The notes under the pieces are model-generated. The model saw nothing but the letters and a program-made list of their open reading frames with translations, did no database searches and was not told where the DNA came from. Shown here in pieces: positions 39,924 through 58,475 of a DNA stretch of 64,000 bases. A program made the translations under genes and the position numbers. Position 1 is the stretch's first letter, and each line of letters starts with the position of its first letter. The stretch is from Candidatus Sumerlaeia bacterium (GTDB lineage: Bacteria > Sumerlaeota > Sumerlaeia > SLMS01): the NCBI GenBank assembly GCA_038208905.1, contig JBBQYG010000001.1, forward strand, positions 7,789 through 71,788, in the 5' to 3' direction.

Positions 39924-42050
39924 TCAACGTGATTCCTCCGACCCCGCGACAAACTCCGCCATCGAGGTGGGAAGTTCGAGCGCGGCGACGACGCGCTCCA
40001 CCGCCAGCAGCCGCATCGCGTGGTTGACGGGAAGGCCGCGGCACTCCTCCGGGAGCAGGTCGCCGGGCCCGGCGGATAGCGTCCGGATTGGCGGTGGCTC
40101 CTCGCCCTCCAGCCTCGGCAGCGGCCCCCAGCGATGCTGACCCGTCATGCCGAAAAGCACCATCGCTGGCGCACCAACCGCCTGGGCCAGATGGGCGGGA
40201 CCCGAGTCGCACCCAACAAAGAAGAGCGCACCCGCAAGTAACGCCGCCAACTCGTCCGAATCCAACGCGCCATGCAGGCTGTGGCACCACGGGCGCTTGC
40301 GCAGCGGACCGGCCAGCGCCATGCGTCCCTCTCGCGAGCCGACAAGCAGCACCGGGAAGCCGCGAGCATGCAGCTCGTCGGCCAGTCCCAGAAAACTTGC
40401 GAGGGGCCAGAACTTGTCCCGGCTGTCGGCCTCCACATGGAGCACGGCGTAGGTCCCGGGGTCCGCACCGGCGCGCTCCAGTAAACGCGTGCGGCGTTCG
40501 AGGGCAGGGGCGCTCGGCAGGACGCGCGGGCGTTCCAGCCGGGCGGCGATCCCGAAGGGCGCCAGCAGGTCGAGGATCGCGGCGACCTCGGGCTTTTCCA
40601 TGCTCTTGGCCACCGGTGCGGCCAGCAGGTCGCCCCACACCTGCTCCTTCAGGCCGTTATCCCCCCGCCAGCCGACGACCGGCGCGCCGGCCTGCAGGAA
40701 CAAGGGCGCCGGGGAAATTCCGTGGCAATATGCCAGCAGGACGACATCGGGCACGATGCAATCCAGGAACCGGGCGAATTGCCATGCGGCCCGGGGAGAT
40801 CGCCCTCTCGCCGCATCGGGAACCTCGCGAACGCGCACGTTTTCGGGCACGTTTGCCCTCAACACCGGCGCCGAGACGGGGCCCGCCAGGAGGTCAATCC
40901 GCGTCCCGGGAAAAGCCAAAGCCAACTGCCCCACCATCGGGAGCGCCAGCACGGCGTCACCCAGCATATCGTGCAGCACCACTTGGATCCGGGCCGGGCT
41001 CTCACCCGCTTGGGGAATGGCGCGGTCACCCCGCGAGGCGTGGTGGGCGGCGGCGATTCCGGGGCGGATGGCCTGCTTGGCGGCGGAAGCGAGCGCTCGC
41101 GCGCCCTCCCCCAGCAGCATCCCAACTCGGTCCATCGGCGAGATGCGGGTGTCGGGGTCGTCCAGCGCGTATTCGAGGAAGGCCCACTGGCGCCGCGCCC
41201 AAACCGTCCGGCTTTCCCACGACTGACTCAGTGGGATCCCGCGGCGATAGGTGTCCTCCAGCGCACCGAATGGCGCGAAGGCGATATCTCGCGCGGCGGG
41301 GCGGATTTCCTCCACCAGGCGCTCGCGATTCCAGAAGCCCCGTCCGTCCTGACGGGCGCGCTCCCGGGCGCGGTCGCGGTTGATGCGGTTCAGCGGCAGG
41401 TGGTGCCAGACGAGGGCCGTGGGCTCGACGCCGACCGGGAGCCCCGCGCGGCGGAGCTCTCTCCAGAACTGGGAATCCTCGCGGCTGTACTCGTAGTTCC
41501 ACGTGAGGGAAGACTTGTCGGAGGTGATTTCGCGGAAGGGAAAGTCCGCGGCCAGGCGACGCTCGAAGATCAGGTTGGAGGTCGTGGGAATATCCAGCCG
41601 TCCGCCGAGCTTTCCGAAGAACGTGGGCGTGCTGCACCCGATGGTCCATGCGAGTTCGGGGGAGTACCAGTTGGGCGAGAGCATCTCCGCCGCGGGAAGG
41701 ACAGCTCCACCGGCGGCCACCCATTGGTTGCGATCGAGGGCGGCGAGCAGGCGCTCCAGCCAGAACCGGTCAACCTCGCAATCATCGTCGATGAAGGCCA
41801 CCAGCTCCGAGGTAGCCGCCGCGACGCCGGCGTTGCGGCACTCGGTGAAGGTGCCCTCGGGCCCGGGGATCACGCGGTGGGGAAAGGCGAAGCGCGCGGA
41901 GGCGAGATACTGCTCCGTGTCGTCGGTGGACTGATTGTTGACGATCACCACCTCAGCCGGAAGGGCGGTCCCCGACCCCAGCGCGCCCAGTGCCTGGGCC
42001 AGCAGCGCCCGCCGGTTGGCGGTCATGATGACGACGGAGACAGACCTCAT
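39924..42050 (-). CDS. Bifunctional glycosyltransferase: N-terminal GT2 domain fused to a C-terminal GT9 (ADP-heptose:LPS heptosyltransferase-like) domain
   Basis: N-terminus VVIMTANRRALL...VIVNNQSTDDT...AFIDDDCEV (GT2 DxD region). C-terminal ~330 aa carry GT9 motifs (HVEADSRDKFWPL...GFPVLLVGSREG...FVGCDSGPAHLAQAVGAPAMVLFG). Confidence 0.75.
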   Translation of the reverse strand: MRSVSVVIMTANRRALLAQALGALGSGTALPAEVVIVNNQSTDDTEQYLASARFAFPHRVIPGPEGTFTECRNAGVAAATSELVAFIDDDCEVDRFWLERLLAALDRNQWVAAGGAVLPAAEMLSPNWYSPELAWTIGCSTPTFFGKLGGRLDIPTTSNLIFERRLAADFPFREITSDKSSLTWNYEYSREDSQFWRELRRAGLPVGVEPTALVWHHLPLNRINRDRARERARQDGRGFWNRERLVEEIRPAARDIAFAPFGALEDTYRRGIPLSQSWESRTVWARRQWAFLEYALDDPDTRISPMDRVGMLLGEGARALASAAKQAIRPGIAAAHHASRGDRAIPQAGESPARIQVVLHDMLGDAVLALPMVGQLALAFPGTRIDLLAGPVSAPVLRANVPENVRVREVPDAARGRSPRAAWQFARFLDCIVPDVVLLAYCHGISPAPLFLQAGAPVVGWRGDNGLKEQVWGDLLAAPVAKSMEKPEVAAILDLLAPFGIAARLERPRVLPSAPALERRTRLLERAGADPGTYAVLHVEADSRDKFWPLASFLGLADELHARGFPVLLVGSREGRMALAGPLRKRPWCHSLHGALDSDELAALLAGALFFVGCDSGPAHLAQAVGAPAMVLFGMTGQHRWGPLPRLEGEEPPPIRTLSAGPGDLLPEECRGLPVNHAMRLLAVERVVAALELPTSMAEFVAGSEESR

Positions 42051-42131: not shown

Positions 42132-42240
42132 CTACCACGAATGGACACTGATAGGCACGAATTCTCCCCGCCTGAACCCGATAGAGACCATGCCGCGTGC
42201 TCGCTTCCATTTGCGTTGATTTGTGTCCATTCGTGGTAAC
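42132..42240. repeat. Copy A of a ~110-bp intergenic element bounded by 14-bp inverted repeats (ccacgaatggacac ... gtgtccattcgtgg)
   Basis: Inverted repeats at 42135-42148 and 42223-42236. Internal cacgaat motif. About 75% identical to copy B at 56874-56986, in the same orientation and the same divergent-intergenic context. Confidence 0.7.
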
Positions 42241-42335: not shown

Positions 42336-44429
42336 TTGGCCCTGACCAGCAATCCCGACTACCGCATGATCGCCGCCGGGTCGGCGGCGGATGCGCGGGG
42401 TCCCTCGCTCTCCGTCGTCGTTCGCCTGGCGCGGGGCGCGGCCTATGTGGCCATCGCCGTGTTGATGGGTTACTTCCTCTCCGTTGGCACCATCGAGAGC
42501 CGGTCGTTCTATCTGCTGGCCTTCGCGACCGGCTGGCTGAACCCGGTATGGAGCATCTACGCCCTGGCGATGATGGGGCCGACGTATCTCCTGGACCAGT
42601 CCAAGACACACCTGCTGGCGGGGATCGAGGTGTTCATCCTCGGCATGTTTGCCGGAGAACTTCGCCTGGTGGGGAGGCCGATCCGCGGCGCCAACGCGGA
42701 AGACCAACGCGACGCCACGATGGACGTGGGCGGCGCGGCGCCACCGGTGTATTGGGGCGTATGGCCCCATTATCTGGTGGGACTGCTGCTGATGCTGGCG
42801 GCGTCCTCGCTGGTGGGGCTGCAACTGGTGGTCTTTCGCGAGAACGCGGGCGAGGCGCGCTTCTCCCAGAACAACCTGATCAACGGCCTGAGCCAGATGT
42901 TTTACTTCGCCGCGACAGCGCCGGAGTGGACGCTCAAGTCTCTCTGGAACTGGGCGACCGGCGCGCTGGTCGCCGTGATAGTCGCCCGCCGCGCGACGCC
43001 AATCATCGCGGCGCGATGGATGAAGATCGGCGGCGTGGCGCTGTTGGCGGCGTGCTTCTTTGGATTTCTGGAGTGGCGCGGATGGCTTTCGCTTCATCAC
43101 GTGCGCGCGCCCAATCCCGATCCGCTCCACGCGGGGCGCTTTCAGGGCACCGCCGGCCACGCGGGCTGGTTTGCCCAGTGGATCGTGCTGATGTGGCCGG
43201 GCCTGCTGCTGTGGTGGGCGTGGGGGCGCGGAAAGCGCAACGTCGCCGTGGCCGGCGCGCTGGCGTTCGTGGCCATGGCGCTGGTGCTGACGGCGGCGCG
43301 CGCGGGATGGCTGGGCGCGATGGTGGGCGGGGCGCTGGGCGGCGTGTATCTCTTCGTCCACTACCCGGCGCTGCGGCGGCAACTGCCCAAGGTTCTCGCC
43401 ATCGCAATCGCCATCGCGGCGGTGGGCGTCTTCTTTGGCGGAGATGTGCTCTGGCACCGCGTGACGAATCTGCTGAGGGCGCAGGACCGCGCGAACTACT
43501 ACGTTTCGGGGCTCCTTTTCCTCCGCGAACATCCCTTCGGCCTCGGCCTTGGCACGCACTTCCAGTTCTATGACTGGTGGATCAACCCCTCGTGGACGTG
43601 GGCGCAATTCGACCATGTGGACTCCCACTCGATCTGGCTGCACACCTTCATCGAGAACGGCCCCTTCGTGCCGATGATGATCCTGGCGGGTCTCATTGGC
43701 ACGGTGCTGGAAGTCCGCAAGTCGTGGGCGCTGATGGACGAGCACACCCGCGCCATCCTGGTGGCGCTGTGCCTGGCGCTGGCGGGAATCTTCACCGTGG
43801 GATTCGCCCAGTACCTGCCGTATATACGCATTGTGGAGCTGTCGATCTGGATCGCCTTTGGCCTGCTGGTGGGTATTTGCCGCAAGAAGCGCGCGCGCCA
43901 GGCAGAGCCCGTGCAGAGCGCCCGCGGGCCGCGGCTCCTGCTGCTCTGCGGCGGCGGCGCCCTGCTGATGGCGAGCATGAACGCCCCGCGCGCCGTGACG
44001 AATTCGCTGCCACGCGCCTACTCGAGGGAGAAGGACGGCGCCGTCTCCGTCTGGACGACGGGCGAGTGGCGCACGGTGGTGGATCGCGACATCGACCACA
44101 TCGCGTTCTCGCTGTATCGCAAGGGCTATCCCGACCATAAGGTGAAGGGCCTCCCGGCGCATGGCGCGGTCACCTGGCCAGACGGGCGGCGCGAGACGTT
44201 CACGCTCCAGCCGGAGGAGTGGCGCTACTTCGAAATGCGCCGCGAGAGCCGCACGCCCGAGCGCTGGGCCGCGCCGGAGTTCCTCTCCATCGCCGTGACC
44301 CCGCTCTTTACTCCCGCCGAGTTCGACCCCGGGAGCGCCGACCGCCGGCAGCTTGGCGTCTATCTCAATGGCCTGACCTTCGAGTCGGAACGCCGCGAGA
44401 AGCGCGACGAGCCGATCTGGCGCTATTGA
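42336..44429 (+). CDS. O-antigen ligase/polymerase-family (Wzy_C/WaaL-like) polytopic membrane protein with a C-terminal soluble domain
   Basis: 697 aa. At least 10 TM segments. Periplasmic loop with HSIWLHTFIENGPFV and an FGLGLG block typical of the O-antigen ligase domain. C-terminal roughly 180-aa hydrophilic domain. Confidence 0.65.
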   Translation: MALTSNPDYRMIAAGSAADARGPSLSVVVRLARGAAYVAIAVLMGYFLSVGTIESRSFYLLAFATGWLNPVWSIYALAMMGPTYLLDQSKTHLLAGIEVFILGMFAGELRLVGRPIRGANAEDQRDATMDVGGAAPPVYWGVWPHYLVGLLLMLAASSLVGLQLVVFRENAGEARFSQNNLINGLSQMFYFAATAPEWTLKSLWNWATGALVAVIVARRATPIIAARWMKIGGVALLAACFFGFLEWRGWLSLHHVRAPNPDPLHAGRFQGTAGHAGWFAQWIVLMWPGLLLWWAWGRGKRNVAVAGALAFVAMALVLTAARAGWLGAMVGGALGGVYLFVHYPALRRQLPKVLAIAIAIAAVGVFFGGDVLWHRVTNLLRAQDRANYYVSGLLFLREHPFGLGLGTHFQFYDWWINPSWTWAQFDHVDSHSIWLHTFIENGPFVPMMILAGLIGTVLEVRKSWALMDEHTRAILVALCLALAGIFTVGFAQYLPYIRIVELSIWIAFGLLVGICRKKRARQAEPVQSARGPRLLLLCGGGALLMASMNAPRAVTNSLPRAYSREKDGAVSVWTTGEWRTVVDRDIDHIAFSLYRKGYPDHKVKGLPAHGAVTWPDGRRETFTLQPEEWRYFEMRRESRTPERWAAPEFLSIAVTPLFTPAEFDPGSADRRQLGVYLNGLTFESERREKRDEPIWRY

Positions 44430-52745: not shown

Positions 52746-55556
52746 CTACCTCACCCGCCATTCCTCCCCCGCGTCCTCCCCGCCCAGCGCGCCGGTTACC
52801 CTTAGCGCCAGCAGGCTTGTCGGGTGGGCGCCGTATTGGCCGGAGTAGCCGATGAGGCGGAATTCGACGGGTTGGGTGAGGGCTCGGAAGCGGGGCTCCT
52901 GGGGGAAGGCGATGCGGAGCGTTTGGTCGTCCTCCGATTGGGAGCGCGGCGTGGTGAGGAGCGCGGCGGGCTCGGCGAAGCCGTCGATGCTGCTGAACAC
53001 GGCGTAGCGTCGCGGGGCGTGCCAGCTCTGGCGGCGGATGGTGAGCGTGAGGTCGTGGCCCGCGAGCGTGAGCGGCTGCTGCTCAGGCGGGGTGATGGTG
53101 AAAGTGAGGTGCTGGCCCTGTTGAATCGCATAGGCGAGGGTGGCGGCGGCTTCCTCCGCGGGGAGGTTGACGGACCAGCGCAGTGCGTCGTCTCCGGCCG
53201 TGCGGACGATGCCCGGTCCGGCGTCGATGCCCGACCATTCGAGCCCGCTGGCGAGCACGTGGTGGCTGGTCCACGGGAGGCTCTGGCCTGGATTGGAGCC
53301 GAGGAAGCTGGCCTCCACGATGACGTTGGGCCCGCCCACGGTGTGCAGGCTAAAGGTGCGCCAAGTGGCGTCGCCGTTGGCGTCAACGACCCGCGTATAG
53401 ACAAAGGAGAGCCCCGGCTGCGTGGCCGTGCCGGCGATCGTGATTCTGGGCGGCTGGGCGGTGACGATCTCGGCGGAGAGGTCGCCGCGCAGGCGCTCGG
53501 CGATGATCTCAACCGAGAGCGGGCCATCGCCGCCGGTGGTGGCAATCGTCGCGGTGTAGGGCTCGCCATACTTCGCAACGGGAAGGAGGGGCGGCGTTTG
53601 GAAGGACGGGACGGCCCCCTCTGGTTCGTCCACGTGGTTGGTGCGCGGGCTTTCGGCGATCCAATCGAGGAGGAATTGATACTTGTGGGCGTCGGCGTTG
53701 GGCTGGGTCAGGTGCTCCAAGTGGCCCCATTGCCCATACTTGCCGAAGGGGGATGAATCGGTGAACATCACATGCGTGCGCAGGCCCTTTGACCGTGCCA
53801 TGTTCAGGTGGGCGCGATAGACATCGCGGATGCGGGGGTCGCGGTTCATCATGGAGAGGAAGGTGGTGATGCCATCGTCGCGGGCGTCTCCGCCGTCATA
53901 GCCGTCGGTGTAAAGCGACGGCCCGCCCTCGTAGGCGATGAGCGGCTTGGGAGCCGGGAACGCCGTCCGCGCGAGGTCCACGGCCCAGCGGTCAAAGCCA
54001 CCGGCAAACGCCGTTGCGTCGGGTCCGGCGCCCTCGCGCGCATCGCCAGAGAGCATGCGCTCCATCCACTCGTCATAGGCCTCCGCGATGTGGCGGTGGT
54101 TGCTGGCGCTTCCCCAATAGGGATCGTCGGCGGGGACGGATACGGGGCGCATATTCCCGCCGCCGGGGTTGAACGTCTGGGTGGTCAGGAACCACGGATC
54201 GTCGGTGCCGGCCTGCTCCTGCGCGCGCTGAAAAACCCAGTCCTGAATGCCATTGCCAAAGTAGGTGGTCACGGCGACGGCGTCGGGCTCCACGGGGGGA
54301 TTCAGCGTCGCGCCATAGGTTCTCATCTCGGCGAGGAACTCGGTCGAGTAGCTCTCGACCCCGGTGAAGATCGCCGCCACGCGGACGATTCGCTGGTCTC
54401 CGCCAAAGACCTCCTGAAACTGGCGCCACACGTCGCAGAAGCGCCGCGCGTTGAACTGAGGCTTGCCGATGCCGAGCTCGGTGGCGCGCTGCCGGGCCCA
54501 GTCCCCTTGGGCAAAGGCGTTCCCGTTGCTCCATATCTCATTGGAGTATTCGAGGTAGATCCTCCGCCCCGGCTCGAGCGGCGGATGGACGGGATTTTCC
54601 TGTGGCGATTCATAGGGGGCGACGCCATCGCCGCCGTGGAGCATCAGCAGCGCCAGGTTGCGTATATACGTTTCGTTGGCGAGATGGGGGATGGTGATCC
54701 ACAGGTCGAGTTCCGCCGCGTTGGCCAGCGCGATCACGTGCTCCCACGCGATGCCGGTCTGGCGAATGCCGGCGTGCCCGCCGCCGGGGCTGCGACGATG
54801 TTGCGGCCCCGTTTGGAACACGGCGGAGGGAAGGCGCCGATCGCCCCAGTCCTGCTCGGGATTGGCGTTGGTCTCCGTCAGGTTCATCGTGCGCAGGAAG
54901 CCCCAAGGGGCCTCGCGCAGGCGGGCGAGAAACGCGGGGTGGAAGAGCTGGCCCTCCAGCGACGCGCCCGTGGGATTCGCCGGATCGGGAAGCCACACGT
55001 CCAGATCGGTGAGGGGGTTGGCGGGGTCGAGGGCGTGGACCTCCACCCAGGTGAGCTGACCGCCCGGGGCGAACTGATACGCGCGCCGCCCGTCCACGAG
55101 CGACCCCGTGGCCGCGCCGGAGGAGTCGCCCGCCAGAAAGCCCCCGCCGTTGAGCCGCAGGTCGGCGTTGCCGCGCCACTCCAGCACCACGCGCCCGCGG
55201 ACGAGTTCCGCGCGGTCGGGCTGACCCGTGGCGGCCACGGCGCCGGGGACGTTGGTGGCAAACATCAGGGCGCGATACCGGCGACCCTCTGGCAGGGAAA
55301 TCGGCAACCCGCGCGCCGAAAAGTTTGGCTCGTTCCAGTGGAGGATCTCGCTCCCCCACGGGCCGCCGGGGGTGTACTCCATCCACACCCCGGCAGAGTG
55401 CATCCCGTTTGCGAAGTAGGGCGTGTCCCAATAGCTGACGCCGCCCGAGTGGTACCCCACTGCGGGGAGCGTTGCGGGATCGGCGGCGCCGTGGCCGCGC
55501 GTCACGAGGAGGACCAGCAGCGCGGCGAGGGCGAGGAGGCGACACAGCATGGTCAA
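52746..55556 (-). CDS. Large secreted protein of unknown function (possible carbohydrate-active enzyme; Ig-like He_PIG-type domain near the C-terminus)
   Basis: 936 aa. Signal peptide (MTMLCRLLALAALLVLLV). No catalytic motif recognised. Ig-like stretch PLLPVAKYGEPYTATIATTGGDGPLSVEIIAE. Translationally coupled to the upstream hydrolase gene. Confidence 0.5.
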   Translation of the reverse strand: MTMLCRLLALAALLVLLVTRGHGAADPATLPAVGYHSGGVSYWDTPYFANGMHSAGVWMEYTPGGPWGSEILHWNEPNFSARGLPISLPEGRRYRALMFATNVPGAVAATGQPDRAELVRGRVVLEWRGNADLRLNGGGFLAGDSSGAATGSLVDGRRAYQFAPGGQLTWVEVHALDPANPLTDLDVWLPDPANPTGASLEGQLFHPAFLARLREAPWGFLRTMNLTETNANPEQDWGDRRLPSAVFQTGPQHRRSPGGGHAGIRQTGIAWEHVIALANAAELDLWITIPHLANETYIRNLALLMLHGGDGVAPYESPQENPVHPPLEPGRRIYLEYSNEIWSNGNAFAQGDWARQRATELGIGKPQFNARRFCDVWRQFQEVFGGDQRIVRVAAIFTGVESYSTEFLAEMRTYGATLNPPVEPDAVAVTTYFGNGIQDWVFQRAQEQAGTDDPWFLTTQTFNPGGGNMRPVSVPADDPYWGSASNHRHIAEAYDEWMERMLSGDAREGAGPDATAFAGGFDRWAVDLARTAFPAPKPLIAYEGGPSLYTDGYDGGDARDDGITTFLSMMNRDPRIRDVYRAHLNMARSKGLRTHVMFTDSSPFGKYGQWGHLEHLTQPNADAHKYQFLLDWIAESPRTNHVDEPEGAVPSFQTPPLLPVAKYGEPYTATIATTGGDGPLSVEIIAERLRGDLSAEIVTAQPPRITIAGTATQPGLSFVYTRVVDANGDATWRTFSLHTVGGPNVIVEASFLGSNPGQSLPWTSHHVLASGLEWSGIDAGPGIVRTAGDDALRWSVNLPAEEAAATLAYAIQQGQHLTFTITPPEQQPLTLAGHDLTLTIRRQSWHAPRRYAVFSSIDGFAEPAALLTTPRSQSEDDQTLRIAFPQEPRFRALTQPVEFRLIGYSGQYGAHPTSLLALRVTGALGGEDAGEEWRVR

Positions 55557-56803
55557 TCCGACCCCGCCGCCGTCTGCCCCGCGAAGTAGTCCGTGTACTC
55601 CGGCAGCCCGTGCAGCACCGCGTCGCAGAGTTGTTTTCGGACGGTGGCGATGCTGAGTTCGTCCTTACCCTTGGTGGCGTCGTCGGGGAAGGTTCGGTTG
55701 GTGAAGAAGACCATGTAGGTCTTGGTCTTCTTGTCGATCCAGACCAGGGTGCCGGTGTAGCCGGTGTGGCCGACGATGAGGTCGGCGGGCTGCTGGTTGA
55801 GGTCGGTGGTGTAGGGCTTTGAATCCCACACGTCGAAGCCCAGGCCGCGCTTGGCGTCCACGTTGGCGGGGGACTGGGTGGTGGTGAAGAGGCGGACGGT
55901 TTCGGGCTTGAAGACGCGGGTGTCGCCGAGGGCGCCTTCGTTGGCGATCATCTCGCACCAGCGGGCCACGTCGGCGGCGGTGGAGAAGACCCCCGCGTTG
56001 CCGGGGCAGTGGGCGTCGGACCCGTGGTAGGCCGCCAGCGGGTCGTGGACGATGCCGACGAGGGGGGTGCCGTCCTTGCGCTCGATGGTGGGGGCCGTGC
56101 GGGTGAGGGCCTCCTTGCTGGGGAGGTAGGTGGTGTCCACCATGCCGAGGGGGCCGAAGACGCGCTCGCGCAGGAGGTCCTCCAGGCGCCGTCCGCTGGC
56201 GTTCTCGACAATGCGCGCGGTGGTCTGGAAGTTGAGGCAGCTATAAACGCTCTTGGTGCGCGGTTCATAGGAAGTCTTGAGCGCGGCATAGCGCGCGATC
56301 AGCGCGTCGGCGTTGAGCTGGCCGGGCTGGCGCAGGGACTCCACGGTGTCCTTGTTCTCGTAAGCCTTGAGCCCCGACGTGTGCGTCATCAAATCGCGGA
56401 CGGTGACGGTTTCCTTGCCGTTGGCCTCGAAGCCGGGAATGTACTTGGAGGCGAGGTCGTCGGGGGAAATCACCCCATCCTCCACCAGGATCATGGCCCC
56501 GGTGGTGGTGCCGACCACCTTGGAAACGGAGGCCAGATCGAACACCGTATTCATCTGCATGGGCGCCGCGTCCTCGGCATAGGTGAGCTTGCCGTAGGCC
56601 CTGGACCGCAGGACCTTTCCCGGCTGCCCAACCACCAGGACGGCACCGGGATAGACCTTTGCGGTGATTCCCGCCTCGACGATGGGGTCGAGCTTCTCCC
56701 ACCCGGGCGCGGCGACCTCGGCCAGGGGTTCCGCCGCGGGCGCAACCGGCGCCGCCATCAGCGCGGCGAGCAGAATGGGGGCAGCACGGGGGAAAAGTCG
56801 CAT
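55553..56803 (-). CDS. Serine hydrolase, beta-lactamase/transpeptidase-like family (class C beta-lactamase-related), secreted
   Basis: ATG at 56801-56803. Signal peptide. SxxK motif in TVFDLASVSKVVG. YxN-like region. C-terminal HTGYTG block. Confidence 0.7.
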   Translation of the reverse strand: MRLFPRAAPILLAALMAAPVAPAAEPLAEVAAPGWEKLDPIVEAGITAKVYPGAVLVVGQPGKVLRSRAYGKLTYAEDAAPMQMNTVFDLASVSKVVGTTTGAMILVEDGVISPDDLASKYIPGFEANGKETVTVRDLMTHTSGLKAYENKDTVESLRQPGQLNADALIARYAALKTSYEPRTKSVYSCLNFQTTARIVENASGRRLEDLLRERVFGPLGMVDTTYLPSKEALTRTAPTIERKDGTPLVGIVHDPLAAYHGSDAHCPGNAGVFSTAADVARWCEMIANEGALGDTRVFKPETVRLFTTTQSPANVDAKRGLGFDVWDSKPYTTDLNQQPADLIVGHTGYTGTLVWIDKKTKTYMVFFTNRTFPDDATKGKDELSIATVRKQLCDAVLHGLPEYTDYFAGQTAAGSD

Positions 56804-56873: not shown

Positions 56874-56986
56874 CCTTTACCACAAATCGACACTGATAAA
56901 CACGAATTTTTCCCTGCCCGTGCCCGAAGGAAACCCACGCGGACATGGTCGATTCCATTTGTGATCATTCGTGTCCATTCGTGGCA
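56874..56986. repeat. Copy B of the ~110-bp inverted-repeat-bounded intergenic element
   Basis: accacaaatcgacac (56879-56893) ... gtgtccattcgtgg (56971-56984). An internal cacgaat and a duplicated cattcgtg. Alignable end-to-end with copy A. Confidence 0.7.
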
Positions 56987-57236
56987 ACTGCTCCCCGATT
57001 CCCGCTCACCGGGCGGCCCATCCGAATGACCTTCGGTAAAGCGCTCTTCATCCCCCCACCCCCCCGGGCCGTGAAAACCGTTGCCACAATAGGCCCGGAA
57101 CCTACCTTGTGAAGGGGGGAAGTTGGAGCAATTGGACTTAGGCCCGGCGGCGGGGTGGTGGGTGCCCGGGGCTGATGACCGTGGCGAGCCGATGGCTCCA
57201 CGATGAATTTTCAGAAGCAAGCAAGGTGCGTCCCGA

Positions 57237-58475
57237 ATGAGCCAGATCCTGAACGGTGCCGAATCCCTTCATGACGAGGTCCATAGTGGGAGGTCGCCCC
57301 TGCTGGCGAAATGCGACCGCTTCACCAAGGCGGAGGAGCTGCGCGAGGTAGGCCTCTACCCGTATTTCCGCAAGATCGAGTCGGCCCAGGATACGGAGGT
57401 CGAGATCGATGGGCGGCGGATGCTCATGCTCGGCTCCAACAGCTACATGGGGCTGACCAACGACCCGCGCATCAAGGAGGCCGCCACCAAGGCCATTGCC
57501 AAGTACGGCACCGGCTGCGCGGGCTCCCGGTTCCTGAACGGCACGCTGGACATCCATGTGGAACTGGAGGAGCGCATCGCCGAAGTCCTCGGCAAGGAGG
57601 CGGCCCTGGTCTTTACCACCGGATACCAGACCAACCTGGGCGCGATCTCCGCGCTGGTGGGTCGCGAGGACGCGGTATTCGTGGACCGCACGGACCACGC
57701 CTCGATCATGGACGGCGCGAGGCTATCCTATGGCAAGACGTTCAAGTTTGCCCACAACAACGTGGACGATCTGGATCGGATGCTGACCAATAGCACGGCC
57801 CGCGGCAAAATGATCGTGGTGGATGGCGTCTATTCGATGGAGGGCGACATCGCCAAGCTCCCCCAGATCGTCGATGTCGCCCGCAGGCACCGGGCCGCGA
57901 TTCTGGTGGACGACGCCCACGCCCTGGGGGTGATCGGGCGGGACGGCTCGGGAACGGCAAGCCACTTTGGCGCGACAGACGATGTGGAAATCATTGCGGG
58001 AACGTTTTCCAAGTCGCTGGCGTCGATCGGCGGCTATGTGGCGGCGGACCGCGCCATTATCGACTACCTGAAACACCACGCCCGGGCGCTTATCTTTAGC
58101 GCCTCGATGGCGCCCTCCTGCGTGGCCGCCGCCCGGGCAGCTCTGGAAATCATGATCGCCGAACCGGAGCGCCGGGAGAACCTGTGGCGCAACACGCGCT
58201 TCATGATGGAAGGCCTGAAGTCCATCGGCCTGGACACCGGCGATTCCGAAACGCCGATCATGCCGGTGGTCATCGGCGAGATCGAGCGCTGCTTCCAGGT
58301 ATGGCGGATGCTGCACGACGCGGGGATCTTCGTGAATCCCGTGGTCGCCCCGGCGACTCCGCTGGACCGCTCTCTGATCCGCATCAGCGTGATGGCGACC
58401 CACACAACGGACCAGCTCTCCCACGCCCTCGATTGCATCGAGAAATGCGTCCGCACGATGGGGCTGACGGGCTAA
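57237..58475 (+). CDS. PLP-dependent alpha-oxoamine synthase (BioF/Kbl/serine palmitoyltransferase family)
   Basis: 412 aa. Class-II aminotransferase fold with the PLP lysine in GTFSKSLASIGG. Conserved HASIMDG and VVDGVYSMEGD. Confidence 0.85.
   Translation: MSQILNGAESLHDEVHSGRSPLLAKCDRFTKAEELREVGLYPYFRKIESAQDTEVEIDGRRMLMLGSNSYMGLTNDPRIKEAATKAIAKYGTGCAGSRFLNGTLDIHVELEERIAEVLGKEAALVFTTGYQTNLGAISALVGREDAVFVDRTDHASIMDGARLSYGKTFKFAHNNVDDLDRMLTNSTARGKMIVVDGVYSMEGDIAKLPQIVDVARRHRAAILVDDAHALGVIGRDGSGTASHFGATDDVEIIAGTFSKSLASIGGYVAADRAIIDYLKHHARALIFSASMAPSCVAAARAALEIMIAEPERRENLWRNTRFMMEGLKSIGLDTGDSETPIMPVVIGEIERCFQVWRMLHDAGIFVNPVVAPATPLDRSLIRISVMATHTTDQLSHALDCIEKCVRTMGLTG

Follow-up and report, generated by a model that had tools for sequence, protein, structure and literature searches.

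Two intergenic regions of the window, by which we mean the whole 64,000-nucleotide stretch of Sumerlaeota DNA that was analysed, share a repeat of about 110 bp, and this raises the question of what the repeat is and whether it serves the envelope and lipid genes beside it. The original prediction, made from the letters alone, had put three possibilities side by side: a MITE-like mobile element, a structured cis-regulatory RNA, or a shared operator for a palindrome-binding regulator.

Two copies of one inverted-repeat element in the window

Direct reading of the window placed copy A at 42133-42238 and copy B at 56878-56986, in the same orientation and 77% identical end to end (84/109 columns), which bears out the positions, common orientation and identity of about 75% proposed for them; similarity is lost a few bases beyond the arms. 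Copy A ends in CCACGAATGGACAC (42135-42148) and GTGTCCATTCGTGG (42223-42236), a perfect 14-bp inverted repeat that encloses 74 nt and extends to 16 bp if the flanking TA...TA is included. Copy B encloses 77 nt (about 75 nt had been proposed); its right end (56971-56984) is perfect, while its left end (56880-56893) reads CCACAAATCGACAC, with two mismatches. The claim that an exact 14-mer bounds both copies therefore stands for both ends of copy A and the right end of copy B, and was slightly too strong for the left end of copy B. In the window, which has a G+C content of 66%, the terminal 14-mer occurs four times at two mismatches or fewer, against 0.53 expected (0/100 shuffles), and the additional half-sites are present as described, CACGAAT at 42156 and 56901 and ATTCGTG at 56967.

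Each copy consists of two inverted arms around a variable centre, with TA on both outer sides in copy A. The left arm of copy A (42135-42162, plus strand) reads CCACGAAT-GG-ACACTGAT-AG-GCACGAAT, that is, three heptads at 10-bp spacing of which the second is degenerate, and it matches the family consensus CCACGAATGGACACGAATnnACACGAAT at 23 of 26 positions; the right arm (42209-42236, minus strand), ATTTGCGT-TG-ATTTGTGT-CC-ATTCGTGG, is the inverted left arm and again gives 23/26 when reverse-complemented. The 46 nt between them (42163-42208) resemble only the centre of copy B, at ~65-70%, and display neither similarity to the GxxExxY ORFs described below nor a promoter-like site. Aligned to copy A, copy B has a left arm CCACAAAT-CG-ACACTGAT-AA-ACACGAAT (56880-56907, plus strand, 22/26, with the two mismatches in its terminal 14-mer), a 49-nt centre (56908-56956) in which no promoter-like site was found either, and a right arm ATTTGTGA-TC-ATTCGTGT-CC-ATTCGTGG (56957-56984, minus strand, 24/26). 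Since the two centres are alike, the short unit must have been copied as a whole. An independent JGI contig has the sequence of copy B in front of the same gene as well.

In both copies the second heptad has decayed to CACTGAT, and in place of the outer boundary AACC...GGTT of the wider family we read TA-CCAC...GTGG-TA in A and TA-CCAC...GTGG-CA in B. The two copies seem one base short on each side relative to TTAACC/GGTTAA, a deviation that fits decay or a sub-variant. When the window was scored for three-heptad arms, A and B alone reached 15-18 of 18 (18 for both arms of A), with a background maximum of 14, and no third copy was found in the 64 kb by this score. The copies are ORF-less, shorter than 300 bp and delimited by terminal inverted repeats, as MITEs are, and they show the architecture by which we define the family, two inverted arms of three CRCNRAT heptads each within 60-120 bp overall. 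The spurious HEWT...-type ORFs, correctly ascribed to the element from the start, are accounted for by the heptad-arm repeats.

Members of the repeat family in several phyla

In order to find further members, we scanned the contigs of one genome per species for CCACNAATNGACAC-N60-90-GTGTCCATTCGTGG and obtained at least 119 loci, often with several copies per genome (loci and contigs compared are labelled L followed by a number). Among the matches listed, about four fifths are from Verrucomicrobiota (Opitutaceae, Chthoniobacterales, Limisphaerales, Udaeobacter and others), and an Oleiharenicola isolate is also listed. Outside Verrucomicrobiota, the listed matches include Nitrosomonas and Asticcacaulis isolates as well as MAGs from Tepidisphaeraceae, Blastocatellales, Abditibacteriaceae, Sumerlaeota and Deltaproteobacteria. 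No element was found in the 2.9 million viral contigs of IMG/VR. Canonical elements are also present on two contigs of a MAG labelled Bifidobacterium (L075, L077), with flanks orthologous to the Verrucomicrobiia contigs L007 and L088; these two are probably mis-binned contigs and not an occurrence in Bifidobacterium.

The breadth of the family bears on the simplest explanation, in which the likeness arose by chance or a promoter region was merely duplicated locally; the original prediction had tied this to the existence of only these two copies. Such a reading agrees with the two copies in 64 kb, but it is refuted by the loci found elsewhere, at least 119 of which share both the ends and the internal heptads. 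In addition, A and B have nothing in common in their flanks after the first few bases.

Alignment of 120 elements by their ends yielded the consensus (T-rich)AA-CCACGAATGG-ACACGAATnn-ACACGAAT, followed by a variable centre of ~30-60 nt, the exact inverse, and TT(A-rich). Each arm is an 8-bp unit repeated three times at a 10-bp period, the heptads being CRCNRAT and canonically [A/C]CACGAAT; the family is bounded by AACC...GGTT, and its arms are inverted around almost any 30-60 nt. The arms, 28 bp long and conserved almost perfectly across phyla, are direct heptad arrays and not palindromes, and they are symmetric, as most copies match the search pattern on both strands.

Conservation of the arms at the DNA and RNA levels

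Once transcribed, two such arms would form a stem of ~28 bp, which could act as a processing or stability signal, for instance an RNase III site or an exonuclease block of the kind proposed for REP, ERIC or Correia repeats. The long hairpins of A (z = -3.6 on the plus and -4.9 on the minus strand) and B (z = -2.0 and -4.3) are indeed more stable than those of shuffled sequences, many elements of the family are located within operons and would be transcribed there, and some centres lengthen the hairpin with different sequences (L026, L033, L101). The pattern of conservation, however, does not follow that of a stem. Arm positions 15-28, which lie outside the search pattern, are 73-100% conserved except for spacer positions 19-20, and these two positions, like all positions of the centre, pair with their mirror positions in only ~25-35% of elements, which is the chance level. 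Among the gene-bearing members described below, mismatches between left and right arm concentrate at heptad position 4, which is degenerate, and in the spacers, and arm changes compatible with G·U occur as often on one strand as on the other (73 vs 73). Besides, a stem requires no identity among the three heptads of an arm, yet these change in concert. As spacers and centre do not covary and no G·U bias is seen, the conserved entity is a repeated sequence motif and not a base-paired stem, and on sequence grounds this points to a protein-binding array.

Covariation of an RNA stem, which the original prediction had proposed to look for among the copies, was accordingly rejected over the 120 elements, and a structured cis-regulatory RNA finds no counterpart among known families: the window gave no Rfam hit at the gathering score, while six loci with canonical copies gave two sub-threshold hits to miRNA models (E 0.27 and 0.52, bits far below gathering), one of which overlaps a hairpin copy in L010. 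Moreover, the T-run before and the A-run after the hairpin on either strand argue against an intrinsic terminator, and transcription across A and B is uncertain given their position between divergent genes. We consider a function at the RNA level decidedly unlikely. Both mismatches in the terminal repeat of copy B become G·U pairs on the minus strand, where the folds are also steadier (-50.7 kcal/mol for A and -49.1 for B, vs -39.9 and -33.8 on the plus strand); this preference is probably a coincidence, since the family-wide test detected no strand bias.

Genomic positions of the short elements

Crude gene calls place 64 elements between genes of the same orientation, 17 between convergent and 10 between divergent ones, and the distance from an element end to the neighbouring ORF is typically just 10-30 bp. 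Opitutaceae D2-102 has elements or remnants of arms in one gap after another of ordinary operons, namely a corrinoid methyltransferase operon (L067) and a FabH/SDR/oxidase cluster (L056). Up to 5-8 copies within 8 kb occur in genomes other than that of the window. Whole elements with a conserved short spacer also form tandem head-to-tail arrays, of 114-bp units at L051 3217-3850 and of 170-bp units at L004 1-720. The L051 array begins directly after a GxxExxY gene. The L004 units carry the variant motif CGCTAAT/ATTCGCG; in this genome the arms are consistently asymmetric, with CACTAAT in all three heptads on the left and ATTCGTG on the right. On the same Nitrosomonas MAG contig (L004 786-1265) a RelB/RelE-like toxin-antitoxin pair, named from reading its translation, is located between two elements.

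This pair, together with the AAC/GTT ends, suggested integron attC sites, which likewise have imperfect inverted repeats around a variable middle over 60-140 bp, end in ...YYAAC / GTTRR... (here TTTTAAC-C...G-GTTAAAA) and stand directly after the stop codons of co-oriented genes. In contrast to attC sites, which stand in cassette arrays beside intI and are asymmetric owing to extrahelical bases, the elements are scattered among housekeeping operon genes without forming a cassette array, no integrase was seen nearby, and their arms are symmetric, 28 bp long, conserved in sequence and bracket one gene family. We rejected attC because the copies separate genes of ordinary housekeeping operons and no recombinase recurs. 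Indeed, when all ORFs of the loci were clustered, no transposase, recombinase or other specific family recurred beside the short elements; recurrent neighbours belonged to large superfamilies (SDR, ABC, response regulators) or were plain orthologues, with the sole exception of a family of ~125-aa proteins.

The same arms bracket genes for GxxExxY proteins

This exceptional neighbour is the 'GxxExxY protein' of PF13366 (PDDEXK_3) and TIGR04256, recognised with 95-120 bits by the former model (cutoff 22) and 111-127 bits by the latter (cutoff 35). In L008 a left arm, the GxxExxY ORF and a right arm follow one another, so that the gene lies inside the element, and the ATG of CCACGA-ATG-GACACGAAT is in frame, giving the protein the N-terminus MDTNEHE. 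In L068, L046 and L007 the gene is bracketed by arms with the variant heptads CACAGAT, CACAGGA/CACGAAG and CACGGAT, respectively. As an independent test, we fetched GxxExxY genes by protein pattern alone, which gave 80 metagenome loci and one viral locus, the latter being the one relative in IMG/VR. Both arms were present at 66 of these 81 genes, only the left arm at nine, only the right arm at four and neither at two, while random 130-nt windows of the same loci reached the arm score in 9 of 222 cases, which are probably further elements. The left arm contains an in-frame ATG in 64 of the 66 genes, at arm position 7 or 17, and in most units the right arm begins no more than ~12 nt from the stop codon. 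In agreement with this, NCBI gene calls start at the left-arm ATG, producing 130-aa proteins.

Arms and proteins vary together. Heptads fall into classes that differ at positions 2 and 5 (CACGAAT, CGCGAAT, CACGGAT, CACAGAT and CGCAGAT); left and right arm belong to the same class in 59 of 60 units, and the nearest protein neighbour has the same heptad class in 50 of 60, a value reached in none of 2000 permutations. Particular columns of the protein follow the class. Visual inspection of the N-termini listed gives, for example, E-T-H-x-I-I-G with G at heptad position 5 and E-V-F/Y-x-V-V-G with A; another case is an Arg in ..GL-R-VG.., which accompanies A at heptad position 2. This agreement between protein and arm class could come in part from common descent. 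More distant members of the family (26-34% identity; Sphingomonas, Treponema, Gemmatirosa) are accompanied by phased or inverted CGCGAAG, CACGGAT or CGCGGAT motifs. In one of them (L210; Sphingomonas parapaucimobilis NZ_CP155749.1, 482837-483265), annotation extends the GxxExxY CDS across the right arm of its own unit (..SSRLRVNQRIGG*), to a stop 2 nt before the start of fabG, the heptads being 8-9 bp apart instead of 10.

The GxxExxY ORF encodes ~125-130 aa, in which the G..E..Y, PD and (D/E)xK residues are invariant. An AlphaFold2 model (pLDDT 80) matches Cas4, Dna2, restriction enzymes and Hjc, and from the conserved residues and this predicted fold the protein looks like an active PD-(D/E)XK nuclease. 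A sequence search of the PDB matched no solved structure, and libraries of defence-system and phage proteins gave no meaningful match. At least 6,320 sequence clusters of PF13366/TIGR04256 homologues exist, and the sole classification paper that covers the family lists its function as unknown and reports multiple horizontal transfers (PMC3424549). Open-access full text contained no description of the element, of the link between gene and arms or of a GxxExxY function, which does not in itself prove novelty.

Among the short-element loci listed, 7 of 119 have a GxxExxY gene within 8 kb. Since tblastn found no such gene in the window, the link of copies A and B to GxxExxY proteins rests on the shared arms; that these same arms exactly bracket GxxExxY genes is what makes A and B MITE-like, ORF-less members of the family.

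Presence, absence and exchange of arm-flanked units

An arm-flanked GxxExxY unit lies between fabD and fabG in S. parapaucimobilis and is absent from S. paeninsulae, where fabD and fabG are adjacent. At another locus, one gap of a conserved operon is occupied by a gene-bearing CACGAAT unit in L177 and by a 135-bp ORF-less CACGGAT element in L175 and L178, with an identical right junction (...GGTT|AAT...ATG). L177 carries two GxxExxY units, ~90% identical by eye, in successive gaps of an operon of hypothetical proteins (605-1021 and 1992-2375). The same two sites are occupied in ~12 metagenome contigs from related organisms (L155, L160, L164, L172, L173, L176, L186, L187, L200, L123 and L068). 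A truncated left-arm fragment (CCGCGAATGGAC or CCACGAATGGAG) stands directly before a complete left arm of another class in L123 (~1950-2000) and in L068 (460-520), which looks like successive insertions or replacements at one site.

The presence/absence cases, together with the centre shared by A and B and the lack of an element in front of the orthologous aminotransferase and O-antigen-ligase genes of relatives, make mobility of the elements a reasonable inference from comparative sequence, and cut-and-paste, copying through a hairpin or cruciform, or homing into arm pairs could each be the mechanism. The flanks carry no sign of a target-site duplication, for which the original prediction had asked one to look: over 202 elements, direct repeats beyond AACC...GGTT do not exceed expectation, and TTAA is found on both sides in just 19% of them. 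Matching of flanks over all fetched loci returned filled/filled pairs and one filled/short pair, but never a precisely empty site in a close relative. Nor were identical gene copies seen at two different loci, one protein being present on 17 contigs but always at the same locus, which gives no sign of recent bursts of transposition. An invertible promoter (inverton) would show the centre in both orientations and a dedicated recombinase; the orientation of the centre is the same within each of two orthologous pairs checked by eye (L040/L108 and L042/L099), and no recombinase recurs near the elements. Finally, similarity to GxxExxY ORFs was seen for 9 of 113 short-element centres and for 6 of 113 in the shuffled control, so that a simple origin of short elements by internal deletion is not supported.

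Several of these observations would suit a homing model, in which the paired arrays are the site of a GxxExxY homing endonuclease, the nuclease cuts such sites so that its gene is copied into them and spreads, the arms serving as homology, and A and B are empty or decayed targets, not derivatives of the gene-bearing unit. PD-(D/E)XK homing endonucleases exist, the ORF fills the arm-to-arm space exactly, one and the same site can hold either form, the short centres are unrelated to the ORF, and target-site duplications are absent. Nevertheless, the model leaves unexplained how arm pairs arrived at hundreds of unrelated intergenic sites; a centre of 30-60 nt is awkward for a fixed dimeric recognition site, the occupants of L177 and L175 differ in heptad class, and arms of 28 bp are short for recombinational copying. 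We regard this model as unlikely. The GxxExxY unit does resemble homing endonuclease genes, whether free-standing or intron-borne and including that of the PD-(D/E)XK enzyme I-Ssp6803I, in that a site defined by its sequence exactly accommodates a small nuclease gene, which is polymorphic for presence within conserved gene orders, but in our case the sites are hundreds of dispersed repeats and not one host gene, the arms are inverted repeat arrays, and there is no intron or intein context.

A proposed origin of copies A and B

The reading that we prefer, and hold to be probable, is that A and B are old, partly decayed, ORF-less members of a widespread inverted-repeat family whose full-length form carries a GxxExxY gene. 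In that form, as the loci above show, the same arms enclose the gene exactly, with the start codon in the left arm and the stop abutting the right one. The heptad arrays would be the putative binding sites of the GxxExxY nuclease, and the unit would behave as a compact selfish element, subject to gain, loss and replacement in the gaps between genes. Short elements, A and B included, may be non-autonomous MITE-like derivatives, or relatives maintained in trans. Most likely A and B have no dedicated host function, any effect on the envelope or lipid genes being incidental.

A bolder version of this proposal, which we find attractive but put forward tentatively and with doubts that slightly prevail, is that GxxExxY proteins are putative nucleases of an unrecognised class of very compact selfish elements of ~450 bp, each nuclease recognising its own heptad variant, and that these elements have seeded ORF-less copies in large numbers in Verrucomicrobiota and, through transfer, in further phyla, A and B being relics. 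The ends of such an element would be three phased heptads, with an ORF that begins within one of them and terminates at the opposite one, and its insertion would leave no target-site duplication. If so, this would be a type of mobilising or homing enzyme absent from the known bacterial insertion sequences, and it would account for the repeats found filling gaps between genes in many genomes of Verrucomicrobiota. The link between gene and arms gives a testable idea, that each GxxExxY protein has its own heptad variant, whose arrays it binds and cuts. It also helps annotation, as N-terminal MDTNxHE extensions are explained by the arms in the same way as the HEWT... ORFs.

Of the three possibilities in the original prediction, the MITE-like element comes closest: the large multi-copy family, conserved inverted ends, lack of an ORF and existence of a gene-bearing form speak for it, while a target-site duplication and a known transposase were not found. 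Bacterial MITEs (Correia/NEMIS, RUP, Nezha, ERIC-type) are also ~100 bp long and ORF-less with terminal inverted repeats, occur in multiple intergenic copies, often within operons, and have longer forms in which the same ends flank a protein gene. They differ from the heptad family in their target-site duplication, none being detected here, in their simple terminal repeats as opposed to arms of three phased heptads, in the centre, which here is unconserved even within one genome, and in the gene, which here encodes a ~125-aa PD-(D/E)XK nuclease and not a DDE, HUH, serine or tyrosine transposase. To our knowledge, a stand-alone PD-(D/E)XK protein of ~125 aa is not among the known transposase types. 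REPIN-RAYT systems, made up of REP doublets and a REP-associated tyrosine transposase, are comparable in having hairpin-forming doublets of ~100 bp whose inverted ends are conserved while the spacer varies, one small gene that the repeats bracket, repeat variants that follow protein lineages, and mostly vertical persistence without bursts. In contrast to these, the arms described here are direct heptad repeats and not a palindromic REP, they lack a GTAG/CGTC tag and their sequence is common to several phyla, and the bracketed gene belongs to PF13366 (PD-(D/E)XK) and not to Y1 HUH proteins.

Genes next to copies A and B

Both copies lie between divergently transcribed genes, as described from the start, with a minus-strand gene on the left and a plus-strand gene on the right. 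Copy A is flanked by a GT2+GT9 glycosyltransferase gene (39924-42050, minus strand) and, on the plus strand at 42366-44429, by a gene for a protein of 687 aa with homologues that carry Wzy_C/O-antigen ligase, which agrees with the O-antigen-ligase-like gene predicted at this place. Pfam gave no hit for the protein itself at E <= 0.001, although PF04932 (Wzy_C) is present in most of the homologues (42-56% identity); the database entry for the protein starts 10 residues further upstream (697 aa). Copy B is flanked by a gene for a beta-lactamase-fold protein (55553-56803, minus strand) and by a class I/II aminotransferase gene (57237-58475, plus strand).

These positions, in the divergent promoter regions of envelope and lipid genes, are what a shared operator would require, on which a palindrome-binding or response-regulator-type factor would recognise the phased CACGAAT motifs and co-regulate the O-antigen-ligase and aminotransferase loci; heptads phased at 10 bp do resemble the arrays of OmpR/PhoB-type regulators. 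Relatives, however, carry no element upstream of the aminotransferase orthologues (74-78% identity) or of the O-antigen-ligase-gene orthologues (51-56% identity), which argues against a conserved operator, and a promoter scan found no site inside either copy. Across the family the elements flank unrelated genes, mostly co-oriented and 10-30 bp from each end, near-perfect conservation of 28 bp between phyla is unlike a regulon motif, and the same arms bracket GxxExxY genes. An operator that serves the envelope and lipid genes is thus highly improbable, and the case cautions against taking heptad repeats for regulatory sites.

Another sequence upstream of the aminotransferase gene is shared with relatives. 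The motif GAAAA(C/G)C(G/A)TTGCCA(C/T), ~130-150 nt upstream of the start codon (window 57074-57115), is kept in the window and in two relatives (L203 ~2830-2860 and L206 ~2830-2880), with CCTACCTT next to it in the window and in one relative. The aminotransferase gene, whose divergent neighbour in these two relatives encodes a sigma-54 activator, may in fact be regulated through this motif and not through copy B.
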